IMG/VR virus record: IMGVR_UViG_3300045919_000118
Location: 966-64,965 of that record
Source: a virus
Taxonomy: Duplodnaviria > Caudoviricetes
Direction: 5' to 3' (one strand)
Length of the DNA: 64,000 bases
Below, in pieces: positions 3,763 through 63,196 of this stretch. The position numbers were made by a program, and so were the translations under genes. Numbering within the stretch: position 1 is the first letter of the stretch; every line of letters starts with the position of its first letter. Under the pieces are notes generated by a model, which saw only the letters and a list, made by a program, of their open reading frames with translations, ran no database searches and was not told where the DNA came from.

Positions 3763-4146
3763 ATGGCCAAGCTCTCATCCTTCACGACAGCGGCCAACCT
3801 GGTGGGGGCGCTTCTGCCGATCCTCCAGGGCGGCACCAATAAGAACCTGTCCATCTCGTCCCTGTTCTTGACCGGCAGCGCGGTGATCGACTTCGCCAGC
3901 GTCGCGGACAATGCAGTGTCGGCGACCTCGAACGTGTCGGTGAGCGGAGCTGCGGCAGGGGACTTCGTCATCGGAGTATCGGCCAGCGGCAACATCGACA
4001 CGACCAATGGCGTCAGCCTCCACGGATCGGTGACTGCGGCCGGAGTGGTCGGCGTGTTCCTGATCAACGACAGTGGTGGCGCGTTCGACGCTGCCAGCCA
4101 GACCATCCGTGTCCTGGTCATCCCGAAAGCGGTGCTCGGCCTATGA
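3763..4146 (+). CDS. Small virion structural protein (fibre/decoration-like)
   Basis: 127 aa, A/G/S/V-rich, IDFASV...VSGAAAGDFV motif. Confidence 0.5.
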   Translation: MAKLSSFTTAANLVGALLPILQGGTNKNLSISSLFLTGSAVIDFASVADNAVSATSNVSVSGAAAGDFVIGVSASGNIDTTNGVSLHGSVTAAGVVGVFLINDSGGAFDAASQTIRVLVIPKAVLGL

Positions 4147-5114
4147 CAAGCTCCGGCGTCGCCACCATAAACCCGTCGATGCTGTCGATTTTGACGACGG
4201 CCTTCTTCAAGGCTGGCATCATCCGCGACGACGAGACCATCGGTGCCGACAAGCGCGCGACTGGCCTGACGATCCTCAACGAGATGATCAAGACCTGGCA
4301 GGCGCAGAACATCAGGGTATGGACCGAGGAGGAGGCGATTCTGTTCCTCAACACCGGCCAGTATCGATACCAGGTAGGGCTGACGGGCGACAACGCGACG
4401 GATGCGTGGACGTACCTGGAGACCGAGGCATCAGCAGCCTCTGCCGCCGCGGCAACCACCGTCACGCTGACCTCGATCACCAAAGTCGACGGTTCGTCGC
4501 TTGTCATCGGCGACACCATCGGCGTCGAGCTGACGGGCGACACCTTGCAGTGGACGACGGTCACGAACGTGTCTGGCCTGGTGGTGACCTTGACGGCTGC
4601 GCTTACCGATGCGAACTACGTCGGCGCGAAGGTGTTCGGATACAGCTCCAAGATCATCCGGCCGTTGAAGATCAGCCGAGCCTCGTCGGTTCAGTTCGGC
4701 TCTGCCGGGCGCATCGACACCGAGACCCCGATGCGCGTTTATTCGCGCCAGGAGTACATGGACCTGCCCACCAAATCGAACACCGGCAACCCGAACATCA
4801 TCTTCTATGCTCCCAAGTTACCGCTGGGAGAGCTGTATATCTGGCCCGCGGCTGAGGACCCGGACACCGCAGTCCGGTTTACCTACTCCAGGCCGATCTA
4901 CGACTTCGTCCTGAACAGCGACACTGGGGACTTTCCACAAGAGTGGCAGGAGGCTTTGACGAGCGGTCTGGCCCTGCGCCTGGCCCAGGCCTACCAGGCC
5001 CCAGCGACCCGCATTCAGGTCCTGGAGGCCCTTGCCACGGCGACGGCGCAGATACTGATCTCCTGGGACCGCGAGCCTGAATCCATCAGCTTCGTCCCGG
5101 ACCTGGAGGGATAA
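4143..5114 (+). CDS. Head-tail adaptor (P22 gp4-like) with inserted beta domain
   Basis: GLTILNEMIKTWQ and DFPQEW.EAL..GLALRLA motifs; precedes gp10-like gene. Confidence 0.7.
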   Translation: MTSSGVATINPSMLSILTTAFFKAGIIRDDETIGADKRATGLTILNEMIKTWQAQNIRVWTEEEAILFLNTGQYRYQVGLTGDNATDAWTYLETEASAASAAAATTVTLTSITKVDGSSLVIGDTIGVELTGDTLQWTTVTNVSGLVVTLTAALTDANYVGAKVFGYSSKIIRPLKISRASSVQFGSAGRIDTETPMRVYSRQEYMDLPTKSNTGNPNIIFYAPKLPLGELYIWPAAEDPDTAVRFTYSRPIYDFVLNSDTGDFPQEWQEALTSGLALRLAQAYQAPATRIQVLEALATATAQILISWDREPESISFVPDLEG

Positions 5115-8137: not shown

Positions 8138-9021
8138 TGCCCGCTGTAGTTCACGCAAAATCCGACACCATAAACGACGCGACTGGAACGGTGACGTTCT
8201 GGGATGGCGCGACGACGGCATCTGAAATTGCCACGAACCTGGTCAGGCCATCCGACTGGAATTCTGGCCATAATCAGCTTGTCACCATTACCGGAAACAC
8301 GCTTGGTTCCAGCACGATGTCGGGGACCAACATCGTTTATGGTGCGAGTAACGGCATCTCCCTTTCAGCATCCACCGCGGCTGGAGCGGCCACGGTGTGG
8401 TTCGTCGGGGATGAAGTGGTCGGCACCGATGGGTTCAATCCGTATCCTGATATGGAGTTTGTTACCTCGACCATCGGAAACGGCTCGCTGATCTTTGACC
8501 CAGAAGAGTTCCCGTTGTTCCAGATGGATCGTGTGGTCATCCCGATCTACAACACCAATGCCACGAACAGCAGTGGCTCGCACACGATCACGCAGCGCGT
8601 AGGTCTTTACACCCGCAACGGTTCCACGTTGAGCCTGTTTGGCAGCACGTCACAGACGTTTGCCATCGTTCACAGCGGAACGCTCGGCATTTATTCATCT
8701 GTATCCGGCCTTCGCCTGATGACCATTCCGTGGACGACGACCTTCAACGAGGGCGTATACTGGATTGGCTACGTCTCCAGCACGAGCAGCGCTGGCGCGG
8801 CTGGCACGTACAGCAACCTTGTCTTGTCGAACCTTGCCACGACGTTCGCTGGCATGTTCAGCGCAGCCACAAACGCCACGGTCCAGTACACGCTGGGTCA
8901 GGGCTTCTACTCCGTCACGACCAACGGTATCCCAAGCTCGGTCGCTTTCAGCCAAATTCAGGGCTCACACAGCAACGCAAACCGCATGCAGCCGATCATG
9001 TTCGCGAGCGGCACGGTATAG
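8137..9021 (+). CDS. Ser/Thr/Gly-rich virion fibre protein
   Basis: LVRPSDWNSGH motif seen at N-termini of phage fibre proteins; very S/T-rich. Confidence 0.6.
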   Translation: MPAVVHAKSDTINDATGTVTFWDGATTASEIATNLVRPSDWNSGHNQLVTITGNTLGSSTMSGTNIVYGASNGISLSASTAAGAATVWFVGDEVVGTDGFNPYPDMEFVTSTIGNGSLIFDPEEFPLFQMDRVVIPIYNTNATNSSGSHTITQRVGLYTRNGSTLSLFGSTSQTFAIVHSGTLGIYSSVSGLRLMTIPWTTTFNEGVYWIGYVSSTSSAGAAGTYSNLVLSNLATTFAGMFSAATNATVQYTLGQGFYSVTTNGIPSSVAFSQIQGSHSNANRMQPIMFASGTV

Positions 9022-9029
9022 GAGGTCAC

Positions 9030-9212
9030 ATGGCTATCGAACCAAACAACATCACCGGACAAGTGGTGACGTGGATGCCAACATCATCCATTCGACTGTA
9101 CGGCAAAACCCGCAAGAAGGCTGATCTACAACAGTTATGGAAGAACCTGTCATCTGGGGAAACAGAATGGCGGGACATCGAGTTCACCCATTCCCATATT
9201 GAGGAGGACTAA
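9030..9212 (+). CDS. Hypothetical protein
   Basis: GGAGG RBS; LQQLW....GETEWRDI motif. Confidence 0.5.
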   Translation: MAIEPNNITGQVVTWMPTSSIRLYGKTRKKADLQQLWKNLSSGETEWRDIEFTHSHIEED

Positions 9213-13662: not shown

Positions 13663-14442
13663 TTGACCCTTCCATCTTTCACGTCTCCGAAGCGCGTATT
13701 TGACGCCCAGCCGGTCAACGAGCTGTGCAACAGCCCTGACGTGCGCCCCTACCTGGGCGGCTTCCTGGACGAGCCGGTCGACCTCACGAACGTGATCTCC
13801 AACACCAACAACGTCGTCCTGGAGATGGACGGCTTCGTTGGCATCTACGTCGCGATACAGCCCGGCCTGTTCGAGGTTCACACCCAGGCATCGAAGGATG
13901 CGCGCGACGCTGGCCTGGTCCTGCCCGCGGCCAAGGCGTCGCTGGAGCATATGTTCCTCAAGACCAACTGCATCGAGGTCATCACCAGGGTGCCGAAGGC
14001 CAACAAGGCAGCGCGCGCGCTCGTCCAGGCGACCGGCTTCAAGCTCCAGTTCGAGGTCGCGCAGGGCTGGCAGGTCAACGGCGAGGTGATGCCGTGTGAC
14101 ATCTACGCGATCTCCCTGACCGACTGGCTGAACATCGGCGAGCACCTGGAGACGTACGGCAAGGAGTTCCACGAGCACGTCGTGGCCGCCTGCGAGAAGG
14201 CAGGGGTCGAACGGGCAGAGCACCCTGACGATGCTGTGCACGAGCGCATGGCCGGAGCTGCCTACATGATGATCAGGCACGGCCACGTTGGGAAGGCTGT
14301 GCTGTCCTACAACCGGTGGGCCGCGATGGCTGGCTACATGCCAATCTCACCCGTCTCGCTCACCCCCATGATCATTCACATCGGAGATATGGCTTTGCTC
14401 GTCCGCGATGACGGCAGCCTGGAGGTCGTCAAATGCCAATAG
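13663..14442 (+). CDS. GNAT-like protein (DUF2824-like) of the ejection module
   Basis: N.PDVRP, GLFEVHTQ, MF..T.C.EVITRVP..N.AA motifs; position before the gp7-like gene. Confidence 0.65.
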   Translation: MTLPSFTSPKRVFDAQPVNELCNSPDVRPYLGGFLDEPVDLTNVISNTNNVVLEMDGFVGIYVAIQPGLFEVHTQASKDARDAGLVLPAAKASLEHMFLKTNCIEVITRVPKANKAARALVQATGFKLQFEVAQGWQVNGEVMPCDIYAISLTDWLNIGEHLETYGKEFHEHVVAACEKAGVERAEHPDDAVHERMAGAAYMMIRHGHVGKAVLSYNRWAAMAGYMPISPVSLTPMIIHIGDMALLVRDDGSLEVVKCQ

Positions 14443-19852: not shown

Positions 19853-22800
19853 ATGGCGAATCCTTGGGAGTTCAACTGGGGCACGGACGACGATCAGGCT
19901 CCGGCGCAGCAGCCTGTAGCGAAGCCGCAGGCAGCTTCCCCCTGGACGATGAACTGGAACTGGAACCGCGCCGAGCAGTCGGCTGCGTCCCAGGACTATC
20001 GTCGCATCAACCCGATGCGGACCATCGGCCAGTCGGATGTCGCCAACAACCTGATCAACGAAGAGTACCAGGCACCCGAGCTCTTGCACGAGGACGAGGC
20101 CACCCAGGACTTCGTGAGGCCTGAAGGCGAGCTCTTCCACGCGCGCTCTTTCGTTCCAGGCGCGGTGCCATCTCAGGGCAAGCCGTTGGCGCTGGAGGAG
20201 CCTGACTGGTTCCATGCGACCGCTGTCCAGACCGGCAAGGGCGTGGGCGACATGGCCGCGACCGTGGCAACTGGGGTCGACGGCACTCCGGCAAACCTGC
20301 GTCGGCTCCCGCTGGACAAGACCGATGACGGTATCAACGTGGCGGACGACACTTGGAGCCTTACCGCTAAGAAGATCACCGCGCGCGCGATGCGTATGGC
20401 TCCGATGGCTCTTGAAGTGATGGCTGGCGCGATGATGGGCACTGGCCCGACGGCGGCGCTCAGCACGGCCGTTGAAGGCGGCGCTGGCGGTGCGATGGTT
20501 GGCACCTGGTTGCAGTCCGCAGGCCCGAAGTTCCAGGCAGCCCTGCTGAAGTACCCTGGGGACCCGGAGCGCGCCTGGCAGGAAGCCGGGAATGCAGCCC
20601 TGATCGACACGGGGTTCGCAGGCGCTGGCGGCCTTCTGATGGGTGCCAACCTGTTTTCCCACGAGATCGCGAACACTGTCTTCCAGATGTTCGGCCTGCA
20701 ACCGCTCGTTGGCATGGCCAACATGCGGGCCAACGAGATGTACACTGGCGACTATTCCGACCAGGCTTGGTATGACCGCTACCTCGAAAATGCTGGCCCT
20801 GGCGTCCTCCAGACGGGCGCTGAGAGGATTGGCGCGCACATAGGTCTCGGTAGCCACGAGCCAGGCTCCGGCCTTCCTGGAGGTCCTGACGGCCGTGGCG
20901 GGGCTGGCGGAGACGACCATTTCATCCACACCATCCCCGAGGCGCTCCGGTCTGAGGACATCGCGGCGAGCAACCGCAGGCCTGCGTCCGACTACGCTTA
21001 CCTGGACCGCAACGACCCGAACTATGAGCCGCGCGCCCCGCGCCGGTCGGACGGCGACAACGTCACCCCCCTCCGCTACCAGAAGGCGGACGAGGAGCCG
21101 GTCGACACCAGGCTGCGCGACATCAACGAGCAGCTCCCGCTCAAGTCGCGCGAGGTGTTCGACAACCTGAAGCTCACCAAGGCCCCCATGTCGGACTGGC
21201 ATGGCGTCATGCTGAACAAGGGCGTGAAGCCGGAGGAGCTGAAGGACCTGGGGCTCACGAACGAACTCCAGAAGGACCCGAAGAAGTCCTGGTCTCGCGC
21301 GGACATTGACGCGCTCATGAAGCGCAACACGCCGGTCTTCAAGGAGCACCTGTACTCGGCGGCCAAGCACGACGAGAAGCGCTACAGCCTGCATTCGGAT
21401 TCGTATGACAGCAACGGCGACCCAAATGGCCCGCTGTACTGGTACGAGCCGCGCACGGGCGAGAGGATTGGGCAGTTCGCCACGCAAGACGAAGCGATGG
21501 CATCGATGCCGCCAGATGCTGTCTATGTGACCGACCCTAACGGGCAAGATCACATGGGTCCGCTCTCCGACGTCGGCTACTCCAAGTGGGACAAGTACAC
21601 GGGCCAGGAGCTCGTCTCCCCAGGCGTGAAGAACTACGAGGAGCGCGTCGTCCAGCAGAACAAGGAGCGCCCGCAGCTCAAGTCGCTGTCGGATTACATC
21701 AGCGAGAAGCTCGGCCCCAGCAGCCAGCACTACTGGTCTGCCATGTCGCAGGAGCAGAAAGAGGCGCTCCACAAGGAGTACGAGCGGGACGTCGTCAAGC
21801 CGTGGCAGGACTCAGTCGGCGAGCACCAGGCCAGCCGCTGGAACATCGGCGACACGCCTGGTGACCACTTCGGCATCACGAACTCCGTGTACCACAATCG
21901 CTATGGCACGCTGGAGTTCGAGGACGGCGTTGTCGCGCACCACGACGACGAGACGCAGTCCGACACGATCCAGAAGGGACGAACGCAGGGGTTCCGTGAG
22001 GAGTCGAAGACCTCCATTCGTAATCGCGCGGACGAAGTCCAGCAGGAGTTCGCGAAGAAGCACTCGGAATGGCGCACCATCCTCGATAAGTACGCCGGGC
22101 TCGTAGAGAAGCTGGTGGGGGTCGCCCCCGCCACCCCCAGCGGGCGTAATCAGGTCCAGGTCAGAGCCAAGCACCTCCAGGAGCTGTCTGAGCTGAGACC
22201 AGAAGAGGCCGCCAAGCTCGGCTACTCGCCATACGACCAGGAGCTTGCAGGTCGAGACGCTGTCGAGGTCAATCGTCTGCAAGATGAGTGGCGGGCTCTC
22301 GACCAGAAGCGCATCGAGATCGACAGTCAGGTCAACCTGATGCCCATCGTTCCGCATCTGGATTCCTGGTCCAAGGTGTCGCTGAAGCGCATGATCCAGG
22401 TCGCGCTGTCCAAGGGTCTCCGCCACATTTCATGGACGACTGGAGAGCAGCAGGCCAGGCGCTACGGGCTGGAGAACAAGATCAACCAGATCAGTTTCCG
22501 CCCCGCTGACCGCACCAACCCGAACGGCGACAAAATCCACTGGACGGCCATCGATAAAGATGGCGACACGCCGATCCATAACCGGGAGTCGACGTTCAGC
22601 GACCTCGCCGATCACGTCGGCTCCGAGCTTGCCAAGAAAATCTGGGAGAAGTCGAAGACGTGGGACCCGGATGGCAACCAGCAGACCTGGCAGATATTCC
22701 ATCCTGAAGACCTGAAGATGGGTGGCGAGTTCCACAAGAAGCTCTACGACAAGAAGAAGGTCGAGTGGGCCAAGGAGCTCGGCAAGCCATTCGGGTTCAA

Positions 22801-25800
22801 GCCGGAGCTGAAGTCCGCGCCATACGAGGACTCGGATCAGCCGAAGATGTTTCGCCACTTCGCCGTCGGCGACGAGGGGTGGAACAAGGTCCGCACTGCC
22901 CTCAAGGATTACCTGACCAAGGTGCAGCCTGGCTCGTGGGGCTTGACCGAAGCGGCGCTGCGGACCCACCAGGAAATGGAGCAGATGGAGAACCAGGGGC
23001 GCGGGACGTCTGCTGACCTGGTTGACTACATCGATCACGAGTTCTCTCACAACGAGCGGGACAAGCTCTACTTCATGTTGTGGAACAAGGTCCCTGACAT
23101 GATTGGCGCTGGCCGCAAGGTCGCGATTGACCACGAGCTTGGCAGCGACGCGCGCCGCCAGATGCTGGCCGCCATTGAGCAGCTCAAGCAGAAAATCAAT
23201 GCGAGAGAGCGCAACCACCTCAATCGCGGCTGGTTCAATGACAACCCAACTTTGGGTGCCCAGGTCCTCGACGATCTCGCGTTCACGACGCAGACGCCAA
23301 GCAGGAACCTGCCAGGGTACTTCGACGGCCTGCGGGAGAAGCTGGGCTCGGCAGACGAAGTCAAAAGGCTTATGCGTGCGATCCAGCATGAGCAGCGCGA
23401 GATGTTCGGCGAGAGCGCCAAGCCGCTCTTTGAAATGTCGACCGGTCCACTGGTCAAACCGCGCCAGATGTGGCGCATGGAAATCACCCCGAAGATGGGG
23501 AAGCAGTTCCGCTACCAGATCGCGAAGGACGAGGAAGAGGCTCGCCCTGGCACGCTGGCTGTGGTGCACAACATCTCGGCTGATGCTCTGATCCACGCTG
23601 ACCGCATGGGTGGCCTCCCGGCCCCGTCGATTGGCATCGTGAATGCAGAGCATGGCATGGCTGGCTACGGTGAAATTTCTCTGCTGGGTCATGCCGACCT
23701 GATCAACCCGGAGCGGTCGTCGCACAACAAGGTCTACAGCAACGACATCTATTCGGCACGTTACCCGAAAACGGGTGGGCGGATGGATATGTCAAAGATT
23801 CCGATGCTGAAGGAGATGCTCGCGGACGAAATACAGCGGTCAGGTCATCTCAGGGGGCCGCATCCAGGCGACTTCGGCCAGGATGGCATGTCGCGACATC
23901 TTGAGAACCTGCACCCGGTCATCATGAAGTTTGCCAGGGAGCACGGCATCATCGGGCCTGATGAAAACATCATGTCCGTGCACAACCAGGCCGGTCCGAC
24001 TCCGAAGGGCGATGTCCGCACACAGGCGGAGGCCAGGACAAAGGAGGTAACGGCTCAGGTCAAGAAGCGCGGTGGGTTCAAGACGTGGATCGACAGGACA
24101 TTCCGGCCGCTGTTCAAAGAGGAGGTAATCCAAGGACCGGACGGAGATGTGCCGCACACGATGCAAAACCTGATGACGCTGATGGCGTCATTTGACGACC
24201 CACGCGCCAAGCATGAGTTTTCCAGTGTCGGCCGCGTGCGAGCGGCGCAGGCCAGGCAATTCAAGACCCTGGATGAGATCAGGGGAGCGTCCGACCGGCT
24301 GGCCCCCAAACACACCTATGAGGATAGGTTCCAAAAAGCTGGAGCGCTGTACAACGAGGTGGCATCGAGCCTGGCTGACAAGGTGCCGGAGGACATCAAG
24401 GCGCAACGGGGCAAGGTGTTCGGGTCCAAGTACCAGGGTGCACCCCTGATGATGGCGAACCACGCTTTGGTGGAAGCGGCCCGCAGCGGTGATGTCGCCG
24501 GGGAAATCCGTCGCTACATCCCCGACGCGACGGATGAGGACATCGCCAAGGCTGTCGACATGATGCGTCAGTTGAGCGACCTGCCGACTCCGTACTTTGA
24601 AGCAAAGATTATGCGGCCCGTGGGGGTCGACGAGTTCAGCGCAGCGGTGGTTCCCTCCAACCTCAGAGAGGATGCCGCAGCGGTCCTGGACAAGAACCAG
24701 GTGGCAGAGCGCATCATCTACCAGCACTCGGATGACCCGCAGCAGAACGAGCTCAATCGCAACAGGGCAATCGCCGAGTACAAGAAGCTGCGGCTCCAGC
24801 GGACCGAGGGTGGAGAGCTTACCGGCAACATGGACGACCTGCGGAAGGTCTCGCTGACGAAGGAGCGGGCAGCCAAGGACGCCCCGCTCATGAAAGCGAT
24901 CATCGAGGAAATGCAGCGCATCGCGCCAGGGGTCAAGGTGGCTTTCGTCGAACGCCTGCTGACCCGCGGCGCGGATGGCAGCATGGGTACGCTCGGCGGC
25001 GTAAACTTCGGCGACATGGCCATCGTGGCGCTCCGCAACAAGGATGCGATGGGGTCGGGCAGGCACGAGAGTGGCCACGTCGTCGTCGACTTCTTCAAGG
25101 GCCTGGGCATCTTCAAGCCGCACGAGTGGGAAGCCCTCACGCGCTACGCCAAGGAGAAGCTGTTCAAAAAACACGAGAAGTTCCTGAGTTACTACGAGAA
25201 GTTTGGCCCCGACGTGATGATGTCGGAAGCCATCGTCCAGGAGCTCGGGGTCGGCCGCCCGACGAAGTTCAAGGGCTACCCGCCGATCATCCGCAAGATG
25301 CTCTACCGCATGGACGGAGTCCTGAAGGCGATCCGCGTCGGCGTTCACCGCGTCCTGGGCAAGAAGGTCAAGGGCGAGGACGTCATGGCCATGCTGGACG
25401 CCGGTCACATCGGTGCCCGCGCCAAGCCGCTGCTGAAGAAGCTCGGCGCGACGGCGACCACGGACTACGGCCTGGCGACGGACCCATCCGGCAAGGTGCA
25501 CTACCAGGTCACGCCGGAGAGCAAGCTCGACAACATCTTCGACAGCGCCCTCGACATCGCCTTGGGGTCAACCAAGCTCACCAGGGGGCACGGAGCCCAG
25601 TGGCGGGCCGAGCTCATCAAGCAGGGTGTGAAGCCGGAGGAGCTGCGCGACACCGGCCTGGAGCACCTGTTCACCGAGTTCAAAGACAAGCCGCTGACCA
25701 AGGACCACGTCGTCAACCGGCGCGAGGACAACCGCACCGAGCTGCACGTCATCATCAAGGACGACGGCACGAAGCCGCTATCGCGGGCTGTTGCGGTGCG

Positions 25801-28800
25801 GCAAGAGGCCGACCCAACTGCCCCGGCGGCTCCGCGGGTGACCGACCATATTCCTGAGCCGCTGTCTGAGAGCGACCTGGAGAACTCCAGGTTCGAGGAC
25901 AAGGATGACGTCATGGAATACATCCGCGACTACCATGTGGACGACGAGGTCAACAACCGGTTGGAGGACTACGACAACTCCGACAACCCGCGCTATCGAT
26001 ACGAGCACCGCGAGTACGACAAGCCTACGTTCAGGATCGAGGAGCGTGACGGCAATGGGGAGTTTATAGATAATCACGGCGCGCATGACGACGAGAGCGA
26101 CGCTGAATGGGAGCTGAACCACGGCCGTGATGACGAGGTCTACTTCCACGGCAAGCCGCGCCAGATTGGTGGCCTGCTGACGCGCCTGATGGGAAAGGAC
26201 CCGACATGGGTCGTCGACATCCACCGGCATGCCAGGAACAGGAGTGGCCGGGCCGTCGACATTATGGGCAACGAGATCGATTTGGAGCACCCGTTCCCCG
26301 ATCAGCAGGATGAGTACCCGCTGTCGATCCCAGACGACGAGCACCGGCAAAAAAAGTACGACAATCACGACGTCCACGACGAGGCCTCCGGCTCAACCCC
26401 GGAAGAGGCCATCTCCAACGCGATGAAAATCATCCGCGACAAGTCCCGCACCTTCCACGTCACGGAGGAGCCGAACGAAGGATACCGCATCTACGACATC
26501 AAGGAAGACGAGTGGCACGAGGACAACAATCACTACTACGAGTCGGGAAACGCTGAGCGCGCGGCCGAGCGACTGAACGACCGGTGGGTCGAGGAGTGGA
26601 GCGAGCAGGCCTCTGAAGAGGTCAATGAGGAGCTCAACAATGACAAGGACTGGTGGGTTGACCGCGCCGTCGAGGTCATCGAGGACGAGATCGGCACGGA
26701 GCTGGATCATGACGACCTGGTGGAGGCTGTGCGCCACCACTGGTTCTCGCGTCGGCGGAACAACAACAACACGACCAGCGTCAGAGGCCCCACCAGCAAC
26801 ATCTCGTTCGGTGCCTACAACCTGAAGGGCGGAGGGTCATACAAGCGCGAGTACCTGCTGACGATCCCGTCGCTTCCATCGAAGATGAACCTGGCCCCGC
26901 CGGGGTCGACGGCCCTTGCGCTTCGAAACCCTGATCCAGACTTTGTCCGCGACCCCTCCCTCCCGGCACTGACCCCGCGAGAAATGCGGGTCAGGCCAAA
27001 TATCGGGCACGGACTGCCAACGCACTTCCATGACAATGGCAACCGCAATATCATGCAGCACTTCCGCGCGCAGGACTTTGAGGTCGAAGACGGCGGCAAG
27101 GCCATCGTGCTGGAGGAAGATCAGTCTGACCCGCACCAGGCAGCTCGCCAGGCAGCCAAGGCTCTTGCCAAGCTCCTGGGCGATCCCACGGCCACGGCCA
27201 CGGGCTACGGGCTTGAAGAGAAAGAAAAGGCGCGCACAGCGGTCGAGAACACCGAGACTCAGATCAACGCCCTCAATGCGAACGCTCGTCATTTGCGGGA
27301 CCTTCTGCATGACACCGTCAATCTCAACAAGGGCCTGAAGAACCTATACGACACGGACACCAGGGTGAGTGGCGACTGGGTCTATGGCGAATACGCCAAC
27401 TGGGCCCACGTCACCGATGCCTCTGAATATCTTGGGCAAGCGGCAAACAAGGTTCCCTCATATCTCAAGGGCGGTGTGGATTACCTGAAGGAGCAGCTCA
27501 AGAAGCTGCCGAACACCGGGGCTCTTCCGAACGCGACGAATGCCCTGGTGGAAGCGGAAGCGATCTCGCGCGCCGCGATCCGCATGCGGCGGAACAGCAA
27601 CAGGATCGACGAGGCGACATCCCAGCTCCGACAGGCACAAATCCAGCCCGACAGCCTTCCGCATAAAGACTCCTGGCCGATGCTCGCGCTCAAGGCGATC
27701 CTGCATGAGGCGATTGTGAACGGCTACGACTACGTCGGTATGCCAACGGGCGCGCAGCAGGTGGAGCGGTATCCTGGGGCCCTGCGGACCGCGATCAAGA
27801 AGCTGGTCTGGAAGGAGCGTCGCGACGGCAAGTTCGATCTCGAAATCGACATGGAGAAGGACCGGCAGAATCGCGCGAAGCACGTCCTGGAAGGGCTGAC
27901 CGAGCAGGACATCAAGAACAACCTTGGCGCGGCAGGCGCGAAGCAGATCGTCCAGGATCGCTATGGCCGGAACGACAAGTTCGAGCCAACAAACATGCAC
28001 GTCGCGTCGGGCGAGATCGGCGACGGCCGCCTGGAGATCAACAACCAGGGCATGATGAACTTCTACGACAAGACCGTTCAGAAGGACTCGAAGGCCTTCC
28101 TGGCGAAGATGGGCCTGAAGTGGGGGATGATCCGGGTTGTTAAGAACCCTGGCCAGGGGTGGCATGTCACTGCCCAGCACAAGTGGGATAACCCAACGCT
28201 GCCGCGACGCTCGGTTGACACCTTCCCGTCACGAGCTGCGGCCGAAGCCTATGCGGAAAGCGTGCGGCTGGAAGCTGAGCAGGTGAAGGCTCGCAATGAA
28301 GAGCCGACGTGGGCGGACGTGAAGGTTGAGCCGAACCCGTCTTCCTACCACGAAATCCACGGCATCAAGATCACGCCGGAGGCTCGCCAGGACTACCAGA
28401 CGGAGATCACGGACAAGACGGGCAAGGTGGTGAAGCCTGCCAACAAGATGCTGCGCTACCAGATCGCGGATGGCGAGACGGACTACGCCGCGCGCGTGGC
28501 AAGGGCGACGACCGAGACGCCTGAGTTCAAACGCTTCTTTGAAGGCAGCGTGGTCAAGACCCCTGACGGTCAGCCGCTCAAGCTGTACCGGGGGCAACGT
28601 CGCAACGCCCAAGAGGACAAGTTCGTCCTGACGAACAGGCGCGCGACGCCGTCCTTCACGCCTGACCCGGATGTGGCGAACGTCTACTCCAGGCAGTTGG
28701 ACACCAAGCAATACGGCCCTGGGTCGAACGTGCTCCCGACGTACCTGTCGATGAAGGCCCCTCTGGACCTGCGCGCACTTGGCGAGCACCCCTCGCTGGG

Positions 28801-30775
28801 CGAGGTTGTTGAGCTCCTGAACTACGACTGGAACGAGCCCTCAGCCACCGACCAGTTCAAGGTCGGCTACCTCGACATCGCGGAAGCGCTCCGGGATATG
28901 GACACCACCGTCTTCCGCACGAACGCTGAGCACGACATCAAGGCCGGTGACAGCGACGGCTTGCAGGTCCGCAGCTTCGACGAGCTGGCAGACCTCATCG
29001 AGCAGCTTGGTGAGGACGGCAAGTACGATGAGCTGGAGAACGCTCTGCACGACACGACGCTGGATGCCTACAGCTTGGCGGACTCCCACCACTTCGTCGC
29101 CATGCTTGGCCAGCTCGGCTACGACGGCATCATCCACAAGGACGTCTTCGACGGTGGTGCTCAGCACTACGAACCGGGCCGCGACAAGCTGGAGGAGGGG
29201 AGCACTGGCGTCCCGGTGCACGACACCTACCGGCCGTTCGAGCAGGAGCAGATCAAGTCGGTACATAACACCGGCACCTGGAACCGGGGCGACAAGCGCA
29301 TCCTGTACCAGAAGGACGTGCCGGAGGTTCCGGTGAAGGCCAAGTACGCGAAGGGCGACCTTGCCCCGGCGGACCCGAAGGTCAACACGCCGGAGTTCAA
29401 GGCCTGGTGGAAGAAGAGCAAGGCCATCGACAACATCGGTCACCCGATCACGGTGTATCACGGGTCGAATCACGACATCACCGAGTTCACGCCTGGCAAC
29501 ATCGGTGGGTTCCTTGGTGGCCGGTTCTACTTCACCAGCAACAAGCAGGACGCCTCAGCGAACTACGCGGGCCATGACGCCCCGGACTTCGACATGAGGG
29601 CATGGGTGCGGGCCGGTGCGGAAGCGCCAAACCTGACCAGGGATCAGCTCCTTCAGAAAGCGGAGGAGTGGAAGAAGGCGAATACGGCGCATGAAGGCGC
29701 TGTCTACCCCTTCTACCTCAGCCTCCAGAACCCGCTCTACATCGGTGGGCCGAATGAGACCCGCATTCCGAAGTCGACCGTCCATGCAATGCTCGGGCAC
29801 CTGCCTGATGCAATGCGCGAGACTGACAGCGAGCTCGGCAGGAACCGCGTGATCAAGGCTGCGGCGACCGAGTGGTTGTCCGATGCGATGGCCAACATCA
29901 GCCACGGGTCGACCGTGGCGGCATCCGATTTTGTTCGCAAGGTGATGCAGGGCAGCCAGGGCAAGCTGATGCGTGCCATCCAGGAGAAGTTCCCGAAGTA
30001 CCGGACGCTGGGTGACAACCCAATCCCGGAGGTGCTGCGGAACTTGTTTGAGAAGATGGGCTACGACGGCGTGATCGACTCGTCTGTCCGCGGGCGCTGG
30101 CCTGGCCTGTTCAGCGCCAGGGACGGCAACCCCGCGATCAGCGACGATGTCGTGCACTACATCGCCTTCCATCCTAACCAGATCAAATCGGTCAACAACA
30201 CCGGTTCGTTCAGCGAGCGCATGAACCACATCCTGTATCAGATGGGTGACAAGTTCGACACGAAGTACGAGGACGCGCCCCAGGGCGGCCGGTTCCTCGA
30301 CACCCTTCGTGACGGCTTTGCCAACGGCAAGGTCGACCCTGGCGAGCGGGCCACCATCTCGGACCAGAAGGGAGACCTGGAGCGGGTCTACAAGAAGGAC
30401 TGGCTGGAGCAGCGTCGCGGGGCACCGCACCTGAAGCAGTTCGCCATCATGCTGCACGGCAAACCCATCGGCCGCATCAACGGCACGGTGAACGGCGAGA
30501 ACATGGAGGTGAGCTGGCTCGGCATGATCGGCGGCGACGACGGACTCAGCGATAGCTCGATCCGCCATCTTGGTGCTATCTTGCGCCGGGCACTGCCACG
30601 GGGGGTCACAAAGTTGACCGGCCTGCGGAAGCGCGCAGAGCAAAAAGCCGAGCAGCCACCGATCCGGCCACAAGAGCCTGCGCCGAAGCCTATCCCACGC
30701 ATCACCACCACCAGGGGGCGGGAAGACCCGCTGCTCGATTATTATCGAGACCTTGGCGTCGATTTAGGGGACTAG
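19853..30775 (+). CDS. Giant (3640 aa) polyvalent internal virion protein: two paralogous ExQSD modules, HExxH metallopeptidase, two ART-PolyVal-like domains
   Basis: Duplicated GVKPEEL.D.GL / E.QSD / TG.QQ..RY / YDK; HESGH at 25064-25078; two TPEFK.(F/W)...P...Y(R/H)G...YLS...PL...GYDG.I...QIKSV.NTG domains. Confidence 0.8.
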   Translation: MANPWEFNWGTDDDQAPAQQPVAKPQAASPWTMNWNWNRAEQSAASQDYRRINPMRTIGQSDVANNLINEEYQAPELLHEDEATQDFVRPEGELFHARSFVPGAVPSQGKPLALEEPDWFHATAVQTGKGVGDMAATVATGVDGTPANLRRLPLDKTDDGINVADDTWSLTAKKITARAMRMAPMALEVMAGAMMGTGPTAALSTAVEGGAGGAMVGTWLQSAGPKFQAALLKYPGDPERAWQEAGNAALIDTGFAGAGGLLMGANLFSHEIANTVFQMFGLQPLVGMANMRANEMYTGDYSDQAWYDRYLENAGPGVLQTGAERIGAHIGLGSHEPGSGLPGGPDGRGGAGGDDHFIHTIPEALRSEDIAASNRRPASDYAYLDRNDPNYEPRAPRRSDGDNVTPLRYQKADEEPVDTRLRDINEQLPLKSREVFDNLKLTKAPMSDWHGVMLNKGVKPEELKDLGLTNELQKDPKKSWSRADIDALMKRNTPVFKEHLYSAAKHDEKRYSLHSDSYDSNGDPNGPLYWYEPRTGERIGQFATQDEAMASMPPDAVYVTDPNGQDHMGPLSDVGYSKWDKYTGQELVSPGVKNYEERVVQQNKERPQLKSLSDYISEKLGPSSQHYWSAMSQEQKEALHKEYERDVVKPWQDSVGEHQASRWNIGDTPGDHFGITNSVYHNRYGTLEFEDGVVAHHDDETQSDTIQKGRTQGFREESKTSIRNRADEVQQEFAKKHSEWRTILDKYAGLVEKLVGVAPATPSGRNQVQVRAKHLQELSELRPEEAAKLGYSPYDQELAGRDAVEVNRLQDEWRALDQKRIEIDSQVNLMPIVPHLDSWSKVSLKRMIQVALSKGLRHISWTTGEQQARRYGLENKINQISFRPADRTNPNGDKIHWTAIDKDGDTPIHNRESTFSDLADHVGSELAKKIWEKSKTWDPDGNQQTWQIFHPEDLKMGGEFHKKLYDKKKVEWAKELGKPFGFKPELKSAPYEDSDQPKMFRHFAVGDEGWNKVRTALKDYLTKVQPGSWGLTEAALRTHQEMEQMENQGRGTSADLVDYIDHEFSHNERDKLYFMLWNKVPDMIGAGRKVAIDHELGSDARRQMLAAIEQLKQKINARERNHLNRGWFNDNPTLGAQVLDDLAFTTQTPSRNLPGYFDGLREKLGSADEVKRLMRAIQHEQREMFGESAKPLFEMSTGPLVKPRQMWRMEITPKMGKQFRYQIAKDEEEARPGTLAVVHNISADALIHADRMGGLPAPSIGIVNAEHGMAGYGEISLLGHADLINPERSSHNKVYSNDIYSARYPKTGGRMDMSKIPMLKEMLADEIQRSGHLRGPHPGDFGQDGMSRHLENLHPVIMKFAREHGIIGPDENIMSVHNQAGPTPKGDVRTQAEARTKEVTAQVKKRGGFKTWIDRTFRPLFKEEVIQGPDGDVPHTMQNLMTLMASFDDPRAKHEFSSVGRVRAAQARQFKTLDEIRGASDRLAPKHTYEDRFQKAGALYNEVASSLADKVPEDIKAQRGKVFGSKYQGAPLMMANHALVEAARSGDVAGEIRRYIPDATDEDIAKAVDMMRQLSDLPTPYFEAKIMRPVGVDEFSAAVVPSNLREDAAAVLDKNQVAERIIYQHSDDPQQNELNRNRAIAEYKKLRLQRTEGGELTGNMDDLRKVSLTKERAAKDAPLMKAIIEEMQRIAPGVKVAFVERLLTRGADGSMGTLGGVNFGDMAIVALRNKDAMGSGRHESGHVVVDFFKGLGIFKPHEWEALTRYAKEKLFKKHEKFLSYYEKFGPDVMMSEAIVQELGVGRPTKFKGYPPIIRKMLYRMDGVLKAIRVGVHRVLGKKVKGEDVMAMLDAGHIGARAKPLLKKLGATATTDYGLATDPSGKVHYQVTPESKLDNIFDSALDIALGSTKLTRGHGAQWRAELIKQGVKPEELRDTGLEHLFTEFKDKPLTKDHVVNRREDNRTELHVIIKDDGTKPLSRAVAVRQEADPTAPAAPRVTDHIPEPLSESDLENSRFEDKDDVMEYIRDYHVDDEVNNRLEDYDNSDNPRYRYEHREYDKPTFRIEERDGNGEFIDNHGAHDDESDAEWELNHGRDDEVYFHGKPRQIGGLLTRLMGKDPTWVVDIHRHARNRSGRAVDIMGNEIDLEHPFPDQQDEYPLSIPDDEHRQKKYDNHDVHDEASGSTPEEAISNAMKIIRDKSRTFHVTEEPNEGYRIYDIKEDEWHEDNNHYYESGNAERAAERLNDRWVEEWSEQASEEVNEELNNDKDWWVDRAVEVIEDEIGTELDHDDLVEAVRHHWFSRRRNNNNTTSVRGPTSNISFGAYNLKGGGSYKREYLLTIPSLPSKMNLAPPGSTALALRNPDPDFVRDPSLPALTPREMRVRPNIGHGLPTHFHDNGNRNIMQHFRAQDFEVEDGGKAIVLEEDQSDPHQAARQAAKALAKLLGDPTATATGYGLEEKEKARTAVENTETQINALNANARHLRDLLHDTVNLNKGLKNLYDTDTRVSGDWVYGEYANWAHVTDASEYLGQAANKVPSYLKGGVDYLKEQLKKLPNTGALPNATNALVEAEAISRAAIRMRRNSNRIDEATSQLRQAQIQPDSLPHKDSWPMLALKAILHEAIVNGYDYVGMPTGAQQVERYPGALRTAIKKLVWKERRDGKFDLEIDMEKDRQNRAKHVLEGLTEQDIKNNLGAAGAKQIVQDRYGRNDKFEPTNMHVASGEIGDGRLEINNQGMMNFYDKTVQKDSKAFLAKMGLKWGMIRVVKNPGQGWHVTAQHKWDNPTLPRRSVDTFPSRAAAEAYAESVRLEAEQVKARNEEPTWADVKVEPNPSSYHEIHGIKITPEARQDYQTEITDKTGKVVKPANKMLRYQIADGETDYAARVARATTETPEFKRFFEGSVVKTPDGQPLKLYRGQRRNAQEDKFVLTNRRATPSFTPDPDVANVYSRQLDTKQYGPGSNVLPTYLSMKAPLDLRALGEHPSLGEVVELLNYDWNEPSATDQFKVGYLDIAEALRDMDTTVFRTNAEHDIKAGDSDGLQVRSFDELADLIEQLGEDGKYDELENALHDTTLDAYSLADSHHFVAMLGQLGYDGIIHKDVFDGGAQHYEPGRDKLEEGSTGVPVHDTYRPFEQEQIKSVHNTGTWNRGDKRILYQKDVPEVPVKAKYAKGDLAPADPKVNTPEFKAWWKKSKAIDNIGHPITVYHGSNHDITEFTPGNIGGFLGGRFYFTSNKQDASANYAGHDAPDFDMRAWVRAGAEAPNLTRDQLLQKAEEWKKANTAHEGAVYPFYLSLQNPLYIGGPNETRIPKSTVHAMLGHLPDAMRETDSELGRNRVIKAAATEWLSDAMANISHGSTVAASDFVRKVMQGSQGKLMRAIQEKFPKYRTLGDNPIPEVLRNLFEKMGYDGVIDSSVRGRWPGLFSARDGNPAISDDVVHYIAFHPNQIKSVNNTGSFSERMNHILYQMGDKFDTKYEDAPQGGRFLDTLRDGFANGKVDPGERATISDQKGDLERVYKKDWLEQRRGAPHLKQFAIMLHGKPIGRINGTVNGENMEVSWLGMIGGDDGLSDSSIRHLGAILRRALPRGVTKLTGLRKRAEQKAEQPPIRPQEPAPKPIPRITTTRGREDPLLDYYRDLGVDLGD

Positions 30776-60960: not shown

Positions 60961-63196
60961 CCAGGACGACGAGGCGAACGAGATGGAGCCGGTCGAAGGA
61001 CCTGGCCCCGACGGTTCGCCGGAGCACGAGGCTGCTGAGGGTGAGGCTCCGGAGCCCAGCGAGCTTGGCCAGCCGTCCCCTGGGCCGCAGGCTGCACCGC
61101 AGGTCCCGGACAGCTTCCGCAAGCTGGTCCAGTACGCCCAGATGGACAACATCTGCGACGACCTGGACGACACGCTGCTCGCGGACATCGGCGCGCGCGC
61201 GAAGCAGGAGTACGAGATCGACAAGCGCAGCCGCGCCGAGTGGCTGGACAAGGTCGAGCGCTACAAGGCCCTGGCCCTCCAGAAGGCCGAGCCCAAGAAC
61301 TACCCCTTCGCCAAAGCCTCGAACGTCATCTGGCCCCTGCTCAGCATGGCGGCCAACGACTTCGCCGCCGCGGCCTACCCGGCCATCATCCAGGGTCGTG
61401 ACGTCGTGAAGGGCATCGTCGTCGGCGAGGACAACGGCAAGCCGGTCATCGGCCAGGACGGCAAGCCGGTGATGGACCCGAGCACGCAGAAGCCGAAGGT
61501 CAACCAGGAGACGATGGAAATCGAGAAGGACCAGAATGGCCAGCCCATTATGGACCCCGCCTCCGCGCAGCCTGCCTACTACGAGAAGCCAGGGACCAAG
61601 CAGGATCGGGCCGACAAGGTCGCCAACCACATGAGCTGGCAGCTCCTCTTCCAGGACCGCAACTGGCAGAAGGACACCGACATGCTCCTGCGGCGGCTTC
61701 CCATCGTCGGCGGGGCCGCCAGGAAGGTCTGGTACGACCCTGGCCTGAAGAAGAACTGCTCCCGCCTGGTGGCGTACGAGAACCTGGTCATCAACTATTA
61801 CGCCAGGTCGTTCGAGAGCGCGCCGCGCATCACCGAGGTGTTTGAGCTGTACCCGTTCGAGATCGAGGAGAAGGTCAGGCGGGGCGAGTACCGCGACTTC
61901 CAGTACAACACGTTCGGCGGCAGCGACAAGAAAGGCCAGAGTGGCGGCGATGACCGTGACGGTCCCCAGGTCTTCCTGGAGCAGCACCGTCGGTGGGACC
62001 TGGACGGGGATGGATACGCCGAGCCCTACGTCGTCGTCCTCCACGAGAGCACCGGTCAGGTAGTCCGCATCACGGCTGGCTTCGACCTGAACGCCGAGAC
62101 CATCGAGATCAAGGAGGGCGAGGAAGGCCCACAGATCGTCCGCATCGACCGCAAGCGCTTCTACGTGCCCTACGGCTTCATCCCGAACCCGGACTCATCG
62201 GTCTACCCCCTGGGCTGGGGTCACCTCCTGGGACCGATCAACGAGGCGATCAACACCTCGATCAACCAGATGTTCGACGGCGCTCACCTCCAGAACGCAG
62301 GTGGCGGCTTCATCGGCTCCCAGCTCTCGATGCACAGCGGCCAGGTGAAGTTCAAGGTCGGCGAGTACAAGGTCGTCAACACGATGGGCTCGAACATCCG
62401 GGACGCGATCTACCCGATGCAGTTCCCTGGCCCGTCGCCGGTCCTGTTGCAGCTCCTGTCGTCGCTGTTCGACGCTGGCAAGGAGTTCGGTGGCATGCGG
62501 GATGTGACGCAGGGCAACACATCGCCCGCGTCGACCGATCCGGCCACGCTCTACGCCATCATGGAGCAGGGCCAGAAGGTCTTCAAAGACATCTACAAGC
62601 GCATCTACGCGGCGCTGAACGAGGAGTTCAAGCTGCTCTACGACATCAACGCCAAGTGCCTGCCGGAGCAGGGCGTGCGCTACCAGATGGGCGACACGTT
62701 CGAGACGGTCACCAAGGCCGACTACCAGCGTGGCGCAGGCGTCGAGCCCATCGGTGACCCGTCGATGATCACCGACGTGCAGCGCATGGGCCGGGCTCAG
62801 TTCCTGATGTCGTTCAAGGACGACCCGCTCATCAACCAGGTCGAGGTCCGCAAGCGCGCCCTGGGGGCCGTCAACATGGACGGCATCGAGAACCTGGTCG
62901 TCGAGAATCAGACCCCGTCGGCGATGGACATCGTGACGATGGAGCAGGCCAAGGCCAACGTCGACAAGACCAGAGCCGACGAGATGGAGAGCCATACGGC
63001 GGCCCTGGTGAACATGATGAAGGCCAAGCAGATCGCGAATGAGGCTGACAGCCACTTCCTCGACAAGCAGATGGACTTCACGAAGCTCCACCTGGAGGGC
63101 GTGCGTAACCTGATCATGGCGACGCAGCAGGAATCCAGGATGGCAGAGATCAGAGAGAAAGCGAGACTCACGAATGCCCAACGAGCCAAAAAGTAA
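60869..63196 (+). CDS. Portal protein
   Basis: D..SR.EW, PF..ASNV..PLL, A.KVA.HMSWQ, LEQH...DLDGDGY.EPY, F.PNPD...Y..G; start uncertain. Confidence 0.9.
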   Translation: MSGQQRPPGPDLLPSTDEERFLPGARPTLNSQDDEANEMEPVEGPGPDGSPEHEAAEGEAPEPSELGQPSPGPQAAPQVPDSFRKLVQYAQMDNICDDLDDTLLADIGARAKQEYEIDKRSRAEWLDKVERYKALALQKAEPKNYPFAKASNVIWPLLSMAANDFAAAAYPAIIQGRDVVKGIVVGEDNGKPVIGQDGKPVMDPSTQKPKVNQETMEIEKDQNGQPIMDPASAQPAYYEKPGTKQDRADKVANHMSWQLLFQDRNWQKDTDMLLRRLPIVGGAARKVWYDPGLKKNCSRLVAYENLVINYYARSFESAPRITEVFELYPFEIEEKVRRGEYRDFQYNTFGGSDKKGQSGGDDRDGPQVFLEQHRRWDLDGDGYAEPYVVVLHESTGQVVRITAGFDLNAETIEIKEGEEGPQIVRIDRKRFYVPYGFIPNPDSSVYPLGWGHLLGPINEAINTSINQMFDGAHLQNAGGGFIGSQLSMHSGQVKFKVGEYKVVNTMGSNIRDAIYPMQFPGPSPVLLQLLSSLFDAGKEFGGMRDVTQGNTSPASTDPATLYAIMEQGQKVFKDIYKRIYAALNEEFKLLYDINAKCLPEQGVRYQMGDTFETVTKADYQRGAGVEPIGDPSMITDVQRMGRAQFLMSFKDDPLINQVEVRKRALGAVNMDGIENLVVENQTPSAMDIVTMEQAKANVDKTRADEMESHTAALVNMMKAKQIANEADSHFLDKQMDFTKLHLEGVRNLIMATQQESRMAEIREKARLTNAQRAKK

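Follow-up and report, generated by a model that had tools for sequence, protein, structure and literature searches.

Since 2017 it has been debatable whether giant polyvalent proteins work as a single chain or are processed into individual effectors, and which enzyme would process them. The question is raised in concrete form by P0001, a protein of 3640 amino acids (aa) encoded by a single open reading frame (ORF; 19853-30775, + strand) in the window, the 64,000-nucleotide stretch analysed here, which is virus record IMGVR_UViG_3300045919_000118 (64,965 bp, with direct terminal repeats) minus 965 bases. A preliminary description of the sequence had proposed that a recurrent tetrapeptide marks seven module junctions in this protein, and forms a cleavage code that releases separate effectors. 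We found the tetrapeptides to be conserved module ends positioned at linkers and, in a survey of approximately 290 polyvalent proteins, modules ending in Gln tended to occur in polypeptides that also carry an HExxH zincin.

P0001 fits the definition of a polyvalent protein given by Iyer et al. 2017 (PMC5512222), because a single viral ORF joins two ART-PolyVal modules (ART, ADP-ribosyltransferase), a PBECR5 module, an HExxH module and a GNAT-like domain, and it is probably injected into the host by the phage. Scanned whole, it exceeds the Pfam gathering cut-offs for ART-PolyVal (PF18760; 88.8 bits against 31.2, in three stretches) and for PBECR5 (PF18814; 63.1 bits against 25, over model positions 3-88 of 239 only). 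We identified 28 other giant proteins related to P0001 in a protein database, to which a representative library added more. Among phage records, a megablast search with the gene gave no match, and tblastn with the protein gave only short, weak and partial matches.

The motif at the module ends of P0001

All seven tetrapeptides named in the preliminary description lie in frame (LRYQ at 21071, FRYQ at 23507, LRLQ at 24788, VHYQ at 25496, LRYQ at 28451, ILYQ at 29300 and ILYQ at 30230), and their Gln residues are aa 410, 1222, 1649, 1885, 2870, 3153 and 3463, respectively. The four other YQ dipeptides that it had mentioned within modules are also present (aa 72, 1527, 1623 and 2848), as are three further matches to its loose pattern [RHL][YL]Q that it had not listed (HLQ 774, RLQ 808 and LLQ 3266). 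P0001 contains 10 YQ dipeptides, against approximately 4.7 expected from its composition, and 6 instances of [ILVM]x[FY]Q, where 1.8 would be expected (p 0.01); counting dipeptides protein by protein was uninformative. Motif counts alone are weak evidence, whereas conservation across homologues is strong evidence.

We examined this conservation in a seven-protein alignment of P0001 with full homologues of 25-67% identity (P0002, P0003, P0004, P0035 and P0032) and the shorter P0005, some of which are only 25-31% identical. Gln is invariant at 24 columns across the six full homologues, and all seven junction Gln residues are among those 24, for which the probability by chance is approximately 1e-6 (P0001 has 151 Gln, and the seven had been named beforehand). 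An aromatic residue precedes the Gln in at least five of the six proteins at 7 of the 24 invariant columns, namely six junctions and VFQ at aa 278, and at the remaining junction, 1649, the Gln is preceded by L, F or W across homologues. The junctions conform to h-[RKHAL]-[YF, or L/W at 1649]-Q-[IVKRMA] (h, hydrophobic), followed usually by acidic or small residues. The tails of the two ExQSD-type modules are invariant in all six proteins, as [FYL]-[RK]-Y-Q for module 1 and [LY]-[RK]-Y-Q for module 2; junction 410, with [RK]-[YFH]-Q in a gappy region of the alignment, is the weakest. As for the YQ dipeptides away from the junctions, those at 1527 and 1623 are unconserved, 2848 keeps only its Q, and that at 72 is kept in five of six proteins. 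Overall identity across three lineages is 0.18, compared to 0.25-0.75 within the motif and 0-0.33 over the 12 residues that follow, so that the motif stands out as a conserved island. Selection on the motif is supported by these sequence comparisons. The same ending is, moreover, common to modules that are not homologous to one another (the N-terminal part and the ExQSD-type, PBECR5, HExxH and ART modules), and therefore common descent of the tails cannot explain it.

The module boundaries, drawn by eye in the preliminary description, were defined independently by structure prediction. Two AlphaFold2 models, model 1 (aa 2780-3640; mean predicted local distance difference test score, pLDDT, 65.8) and model 2 (aa 1150-2000; mean 67.1), cover six of the seven junctions, with junction 410 outside them; their alignments were shallow (25 and 14 rows), and the first ART module and the HExxH module were modelled only moderately well. 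All six covered junctions fall within, or at the first residue of, segments of pLDDT <50 that separate domains modelled at 80-95. Q1222 lies in segment 39-83 and Q1885 in segment 687-748 of model 2, and Q2870 and Q3153 lie in segments 38-108 and 320-392 of model 1. Q1649 is the exact start of such a segment (residue 500 of model 2), as is Q3463 (residue 684 of model 1), where confidence along the tail of the second ART module drops to 56 and then 43, the tail being unpacked on its domain. These segments take up 261 of 861 residues in model 1 and 238 of 851 in model 2, or approximately 29% overall, so that six of six would arise by chance with a probability of approximately 6e-4. The junctions also lie close to indels, at a mean distance of 6.7 residues versus 22.8 for all residues (p 0.02). 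When P0001 was scanned by Pfam in eight pieces, the PBECR5 match began 13 residues past FRYQ, and the two ART-PolyVal matches started approximately 35-40 residues past one motif and stopped approximately 13 residues ahead of the next. That the motif marks module ends at linkers is thus borne out by the low-pLDDT positions, the nearby indels and the conservation.

These results bear on the plainest alternative, that a loose pattern was fitted by chance once boundaries had been chosen by eye. The pattern does match three more times inside modules, beside the four internal YQ dipeptides, and the enrichment in counts reaches only p ~0.01. Given the seven Gln invariant in six homologues and the placement of all six modelled sites in linkers, we regard chance as hardly credible.

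Elsewhere in the phage proteome the motif shows no enrichment, with 14 YQ dipeptides against 13.9 expected (45 ORFs) and none in the capsid protein; a general head-protease site is therefore disfavoured. The sole motif-like site outside P0001, QYRYQVGL at aa 72-79 of an adaptor-like ORF (4143-5114), is probably due to chance.

Gln endings and embedded zincins across polyvalent proteins

A hidden Markov model (HMM) built from the ART tails of the clade of P0001, and run on 177 proteins, gave 428 matches in 165 proteins, of which 393 were parsed. The general ART-PolyVal ending is QIKSA.GN.G.F-D-P-x-[ND]-P-[DN]-I-[RLT]-[FY]-[SQ], and the counts at its last position among the parsed tails include 156 S, 82 Q, 37 R and 36 A. 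On this sequence evidence, the ILYQ behind both ART modules of P0001 is the local form of the common ART-PolyVal tail, a point missed in the preliminary description. The ExQSD-type modules similarly constitute a family, which shares a GGEGMKGFYD block and has its own tail, [IV]TPxMR...G..[LM][FY]x. Outside the ART tails, the 4-mer [IVLM][RLK][FY][SQ] is unenriched (128 versus 156 expected), and the 5-mer with a leading D or N occurs 27 times versus 7.2 expected, some of which may be ART tails that the HMM missed.

The last residue of these tails is associated with the presence of a peptidase in the same protein. An HExxH motif was found within 46 residues downstream of 17 of 83 Gln-ending tails, compared to 2 of 155 Ser-ending tails and 3 of 151 others. 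From the region downstream of the Gln-ending tails, we built an HMM (motif ADLSTFLHExGH) for a family that we name zincin-X, which is present in 44 of the 177 proteins and is not covered by Pfam, a scan of 10 of these proteins having returned no peptidase family. Gln is the last residue of 53 of 54 ART tails in zincin-X proteins and of 22 of 23 in the P0001 clade, versus 8 of 312 in proteins with neither peptidase. Counted by protein, at least half of the ART tails end in Gln in 35 of 36 zincin-X proteins, 8 of 9 members of the P0001 clade and 5 of 111 proteins with neither (zincin-X versus neither, Fisher 2.7e-27). The ExQSD-type tails follow the same division, ending in Gln in 7 of 7 cases with zincin-X (1 unparsed) and 1 of 27 with neither (2 unparsed; Fisher 1.5e-6). 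This co-occurrence supports a cleavage code, because a protease and its site predict exactly such a pairing.

The zincin-X domain itself is usually preceded by h-h-x-Q or h-x-[FYLW]-Q (x, any residue), 3-20 residues before a conserved RG, whether the module upstream is of ART or ExQSD type; directly after the zincin-X match, for which the HMM spans 230 residues, no conserved motif was seen. In a replicate sample of 118 new proteins, chosen by zincin, Gln ends 50 of 53 ART tails and all five parsed ExQSD-type tails, and the motif occurs upstream of zincin-X at 66 of 117 domains versus 13 of 117 control windows; of the 12 misses that were printed, 10 show xFxQ. Different groups of proteins use different dialects of the ending. 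In zincin-X proteins it is I-L-x-Q (I in 51, L in 52 and Q in 53 of 54), with the residue before the Gln free, and in the P0001 clade it is x-Y-Q (Y and Q each in 10 of 11). In proteins with neither peptidase it is I-R-F-S with a variable last residue, with 2.33 different last residues per protein among the 45 proteins with at least three tails.

Endings are alike within a protein, as with IRFS, ITRR, INMA, IxFS and ILxQ, or I[LR]YQ in P0001. Tail pairs share their last two residues in 24-36% of cases within one protein, even where the module bodies are <35% identical, versus 3.5-6% between different proteins at equal divergence, with body divergence taken from pairwise alignment and the pairs being non-independent. 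On a tree of ART bodies, which is poorly resolved, the Gln label is distributed almost randomly (56 changes versus 62.9 when shuffled), yet of the 57 groups made up solely of Gln-ending modules, 50 are confined to proteins that bear a peptidase. In P0006 the ART is 52% identical to the first ART of P0001, yet the tails end in ITKS. With Gln scattered on this tree and endings alike within proteins, the ending therefore follows the protein and not the module. ART-tail endings consistent within each protein are also seen in proteins without zincin-X, among them P0031, P0033, P0034, P0042, P0047, P0053, P0067 and P0103, in forms such as ITRR, IRKx, ILxS, IxFS, ISEx, INMA, IxEE and IDEA.

Likeness of endings within a protein could also arise if the tails were recombination seams, in which a short shared sequence at module ends helps whole modules to be gained, lost or swapped, a role also proposed for the pre-toxin motifs of polymorphic toxins. 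The preliminary description had raised this on account of CGCTACCAGA, which recurs at three junctions, and the window holds 4 copies versus 0.12 expected. In addition, at equal body divergence the likeness of tail endings is 5-10 times higher within a protein than between proteins, and P0002 and P0003 have one more ART-like module, with breakpoints exactly in two DKR[IV][LM]YQ tails that share approximately 19 of 24 nt; the extra module (~221 aa) stands between the first and second ART modules in the sister phages L003 (about 8414-9079) and L004. The shared word, however, consists of the preferred codons of R-Y-Q plus one base (CGC 47%, TAC 82%, CAG 88%), the shared DNA stops at 10-15 nt, and the tails of the two ART modules have only 13 nt in common. 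A seam predicts neither the tie between Gln and peptidase nor selection on amino acids across proteins of 25-30% identity, and breakpoints at the tails could be a side effect of their conservation. Thus, of the argument for a seam, the shared word gives way to codon bias, while a single module indel that breaks exactly in the motif stands, and we consider a seam improbable as the main role of the motif. The fourth copy of CGCTACCAGA lies outside the P0001 gene, at 62678-62687 on the + strand.

Proposed processing of P0001 and its alternatives

We propose that P0001 consists of eight modules, each ending in a short exposed tail with h-x-[Y/F]-Q last, and that these tails would be processed by the zincin-type metallopeptidase module (HESGH, aa 1738-1742) that the protein itself contains. 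Whether it took place within the capsid or once the protein had been injected, cleavage would free from the N-terminal part a set of candidate effectors, comprising two ADP-ribosyltransferases, a PBECR5/DarT-like module, two ExQSD-type modules and a GNAT-like domain. We infer, and do not observe, that the HExxH module is active and reads the motif, on which side of the Gln the bond would be cut, and when. For the junctions of P0001, we give such a cleavage code an even chance. The broader proposal, that zincin-bearing polyvalent proteins are self-processing polyproteins with a Gln junction code (I-L-x-Q with zincin-X, x-[Y/F]-Q in the P0001 clade), and that their tail ends co-evolve with the peptidase, is more tentative and falls slightly short of even; proteins with different endings (such as IRFS, ITRR and INMA) may be substrates of different proteases or stay uncut.

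The candidate peptidase is the HExxH module at aa 1650-1885 (24800-25507, + strand), ending in GKVHYQ (25496-25507). The HESGH motif of the preliminary description is confirmed at 25064-25078. The module is present in all members of the clade, including P0005, with RHExxH and a later EAIxxE conserved. HESGH lies on a modelled helix (587-602) after two short strands, where pLDDT is only 54-75; from the motif and this modelled strand-strand-helix arrangement, the module is a putative peptidase. A search for the module among longer proteins found nothing, an atlas search with it returned unnamed clusters only, and the zincin-X HMM does not detect it.

On either side of this module lie the segments that cleavage would separate, all encoded on the + strand. 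The N-terminal part (aa 1-410, 19853-21082), with hydrophobic Gly/Ala-rich stretches and ending in LRYQ (21071-21082), has no Pfam or NCBIfam match and is kept at 38-78% identity in P0002-5, P0032 and P0035. ExQSD-type module 1 (aa 411-1222, 21083-23518) ends in ..MEITPKMGKQFRYQ (23507-23518) and matches an HMM built here for the GGEGMKGFYD block at aa 952-983. It contains a second HExxH, HEFSH (aa 1062-1066, 23036-23050), which is absent at that place in P0002 and P0003 and is probably due to chance. ExQSD-type module 2 (aa 1886-2870, 25508-28462) follows the HExxH module and ends in ..ITPEARQDYQ..NKMLRYQ (28451-28462).

Between ExQSD-type module 1 and the HExxH module lies the PBECR5 module (aa 1223-1649, 23519-24799; PF18814, E 1.3e-17), ending in KKLRLQ (24788-24799), which has a confident fold over residues 84-499 of model 2 (pLDDT 80-93). 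PBECR5 in Pfam is a predicted BECR-fold RNase. The best fold matches here are to DarT DNA ADP-ribosyltransferases (Z 8.9, 8.8, 7.7 and 7.0), CteC and Tpt1, and on these modelled folds the module may be a third ART-fold module rather than a nuclease.

The two recognised ART-PolyVal modules come next. The first (aa 2871-3153, 28463-29311) has the tail EQIKSVHNTGTWNRGDKRILYQ, with the motif at 29300-29311, and PF18760 spans residues 35-270 of the piece (model positions 3-136 of 140; E 1.6e-9). The second (aa 3154-3463, 29312-30241; PF18760, E 7.6e-18), modelled at pLDDT 85-96, has the tail NQIKSVNNTGSFSERMNHILYQ, with the motif at 30230-30241. The C-terminal domain (aa 3464-3640, 30242-30772; pLDDT ~80) has no Pfam match and is 42-48% identical in P0004 and P0005. 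Its modelled fold may be GNAT-like, since Foldseek pairs it with many GNAT acetyltransferases at probability 0.97-1.0, although at E 0.02-0.06. The ORF at 13663-14442 gives weak GNAT matches too. In the distant clade member P0005 the C-terminus reads ..DPLLEYFQGM, with YFQ two residues from the end, and the homologous C-terminus of P0001 reads ..DPLLDYYRDLGVDLGD. For model 1 as a whole (window 28190-30772), the top Foldseek row is a cyanophage A4 pre-ejectosome chain (9k3a_B; 316 columns, E 0.013, probability 0.98).

Several observations weigh against processing by an embedded zincin. No cleavage product is on record for P0001 or any relative. The HExxH module has no Pfam or NCBIfam match, and hhalign of this module against zincin-X gave only 44% probability, over 51 columns around the HExxH helix. 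Foldseek on the 851-residue multi-domain model gave no match at E up to 0.001, and VIA-align lists no zincin for residues 525-686 of that model, where one domain fills the matches listed. At the junctions, P0003 reads RHQ at 410, and P0005 retains the HExxH module and the Gln at its ExQSD and ART tails, but is without the motif at two other junctions. The Gln-zincin statistics ignore shared ancestry, and a single LPD22-ART-zincin architecture accounts for many of the zincin-X proteins. Related tails, from these families, occur in 111 proteins without either peptidase (312 ART tails), and the ART tail persists where the ART is the last module, as in P0140, which ends ..NPDLRG; therefore the tail has some other role or another reader. 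Finally, the N4 virion RNA polymerase, ArdC and TraC1 carry metallopeptidases yet are delivered uncut (PMC5512222).

The last three of these points lead to the alternative that the tails are never cut, but space the modules, cap them as a strand or help the protein to unfold and refold as it is ejected, with Gln a habit of certain lineages. In its favour, the ART tail is nearly universal (393 parsed in 177 proteins), 312 tails are in proteins that lack a detected peptidase, and tails persist at C-termini. The h-p-h-p pattern would suit a short edge strand, and some proteins with metallopeptidases are delivered uncut (PMC5512222). A spacer nonetheless leaves unexplained why unrelated modules of one protein share their last residues, and an uncut tail does not explain why Gln accompanies the zincin while the last residue varies otherwise (2.33 per protein, 45 proteins). 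The tail of the second ART module, with its falling confidence, is also not packed on the domain as modelled. We consider uncut tails unlikely, though the possibility carries appreciable weight.

A different reader of the same sites was suggested in the preliminary description, namely the papain-family (C1) cysteine peptidase of the phage (34000-34752, + strand). The P0001 gene sits within a + strand block of virion genes, with a capsid protein, an adaptor, a head-closure protein and an ORF matching the PHROG 'DNA ejection' family on its 5' side, and an M15 endolysin and the papain-family peptidase on its 3' side. The latter is a true member of the C1 family (PF00112; 61 bits versus a cut-off of 20.7, model positions 8-202 of 220) and has a counterpart of 93% identity in sister phage L003. 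Because bulky hydrophobic side chains are favoured at P2 by papain-family enzymes, Tyr, Phe or Leu could occupy that position, followed by Gln as P1. However, the gene is located past the lysis genes and apart from the virion genes. Its homologues in 20 phage records are scattered (jumbo phages, Lak phages, an Alicyclobacillus phage where it is annotated as endolysin, and others), with no visible polyvalent link, the giant proteins there being unexamined, and across proteins the Gln ending tracks the embedded zincin. Co-occurrence of the C1 gene and P0001 was compared in one close relative only, and viral contigs, when scanned for the C-terminal domain by a single sequence and subsequently by an alignment, yielded relatives only in the two sister contigs. 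The gene is thus real and conserved, but nothing ties it to the motif, and we hold cleavage by the C1 peptidase to be very improbable.

The interpretation of the motif as a cleavage code that releases effectors is therefore partly supported. The module-end motif, its position at linkers, the selection on it and its association with the zincin speak for it, and the suggestion of the C1 protease as the reader is not supported.

Relation to known systems

A defined site with a comparative signature, Gln with a zincin and other residues without, makes the question of cutting directly testable. If the proposal is true, mature products could be predicted in thousands of phage and plasmid proteins (an ART query with its flanks retrieved 4463 cluster representatives at E up to 0.001), and it could define a metallopeptidase with an uncommon Gln specificity.

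Several known systems resemble parts of this arrangement. Viral proteases of the 3C/TEV type cut polyproteins after Gln, for example in LFQ or YFQ, and P0001 shares with their substrates a repeated short hydrophobic/aromatic-Gln site at the domain junctions of one long chain. The candidate enzyme in P0001 is instead a metallopeptidase, for which the Gln could be P1' rather than P1. By Pfam, no chymotrypsin-fold cysteine protease was found in P0001 or in 34 other ORFs of the window, the only peptidases being the C1 papain-family and M15 proteins. Internal head proteins of phages are processed at a short consensus by a prohead protease, such as gp21 of T4. There, as proposed here, packaged and injected proteins are trimmed at a recurring short motif; in contrast, the P0001 motif is unenriched in the other proteins of its phage, and we recognised no separate prohead protease. 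Demarcation motifs such as VENN in CdiA precede polymorphic toxin domains. They resemble the P0001 motif in that a short conserved peptide bounds exchangeable modules, and one indel among the relatives of P0001 breaks in the motif. They differ in that the P0001 motif follows every module, not only the last, and that its last residue co-varies with the peptidase.

The closest parallel is with the polyvalent proteins bearing zincin metallopeptidases, in which zincin-like metallopeptidases are the commonest domain (PMC5512222). P0001 is alike in being a giant multi-enzyme protein encoded near virion and ejection genes, with ART-PolyVal, PBECR5 and HExxH modules, and autoproteolytic processing, with release by the metallopeptidase, was proposed in that paper. 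It differs in that its HExxH module matches no Pfam model, and in that the part of the paper considered here names no cleavage site or junction motif and does not contain the word 'linker'. In the literature, taken mostly as titles and abstracts, the junction motif and tails are undescribed, and the supplementary alignments of PMC5512222, which lie outside that part, may show the tails. Thus, the idea of processing is old, while the site, the tails, the protein-specific endings and their co-variation with the peptidase are new and testable.

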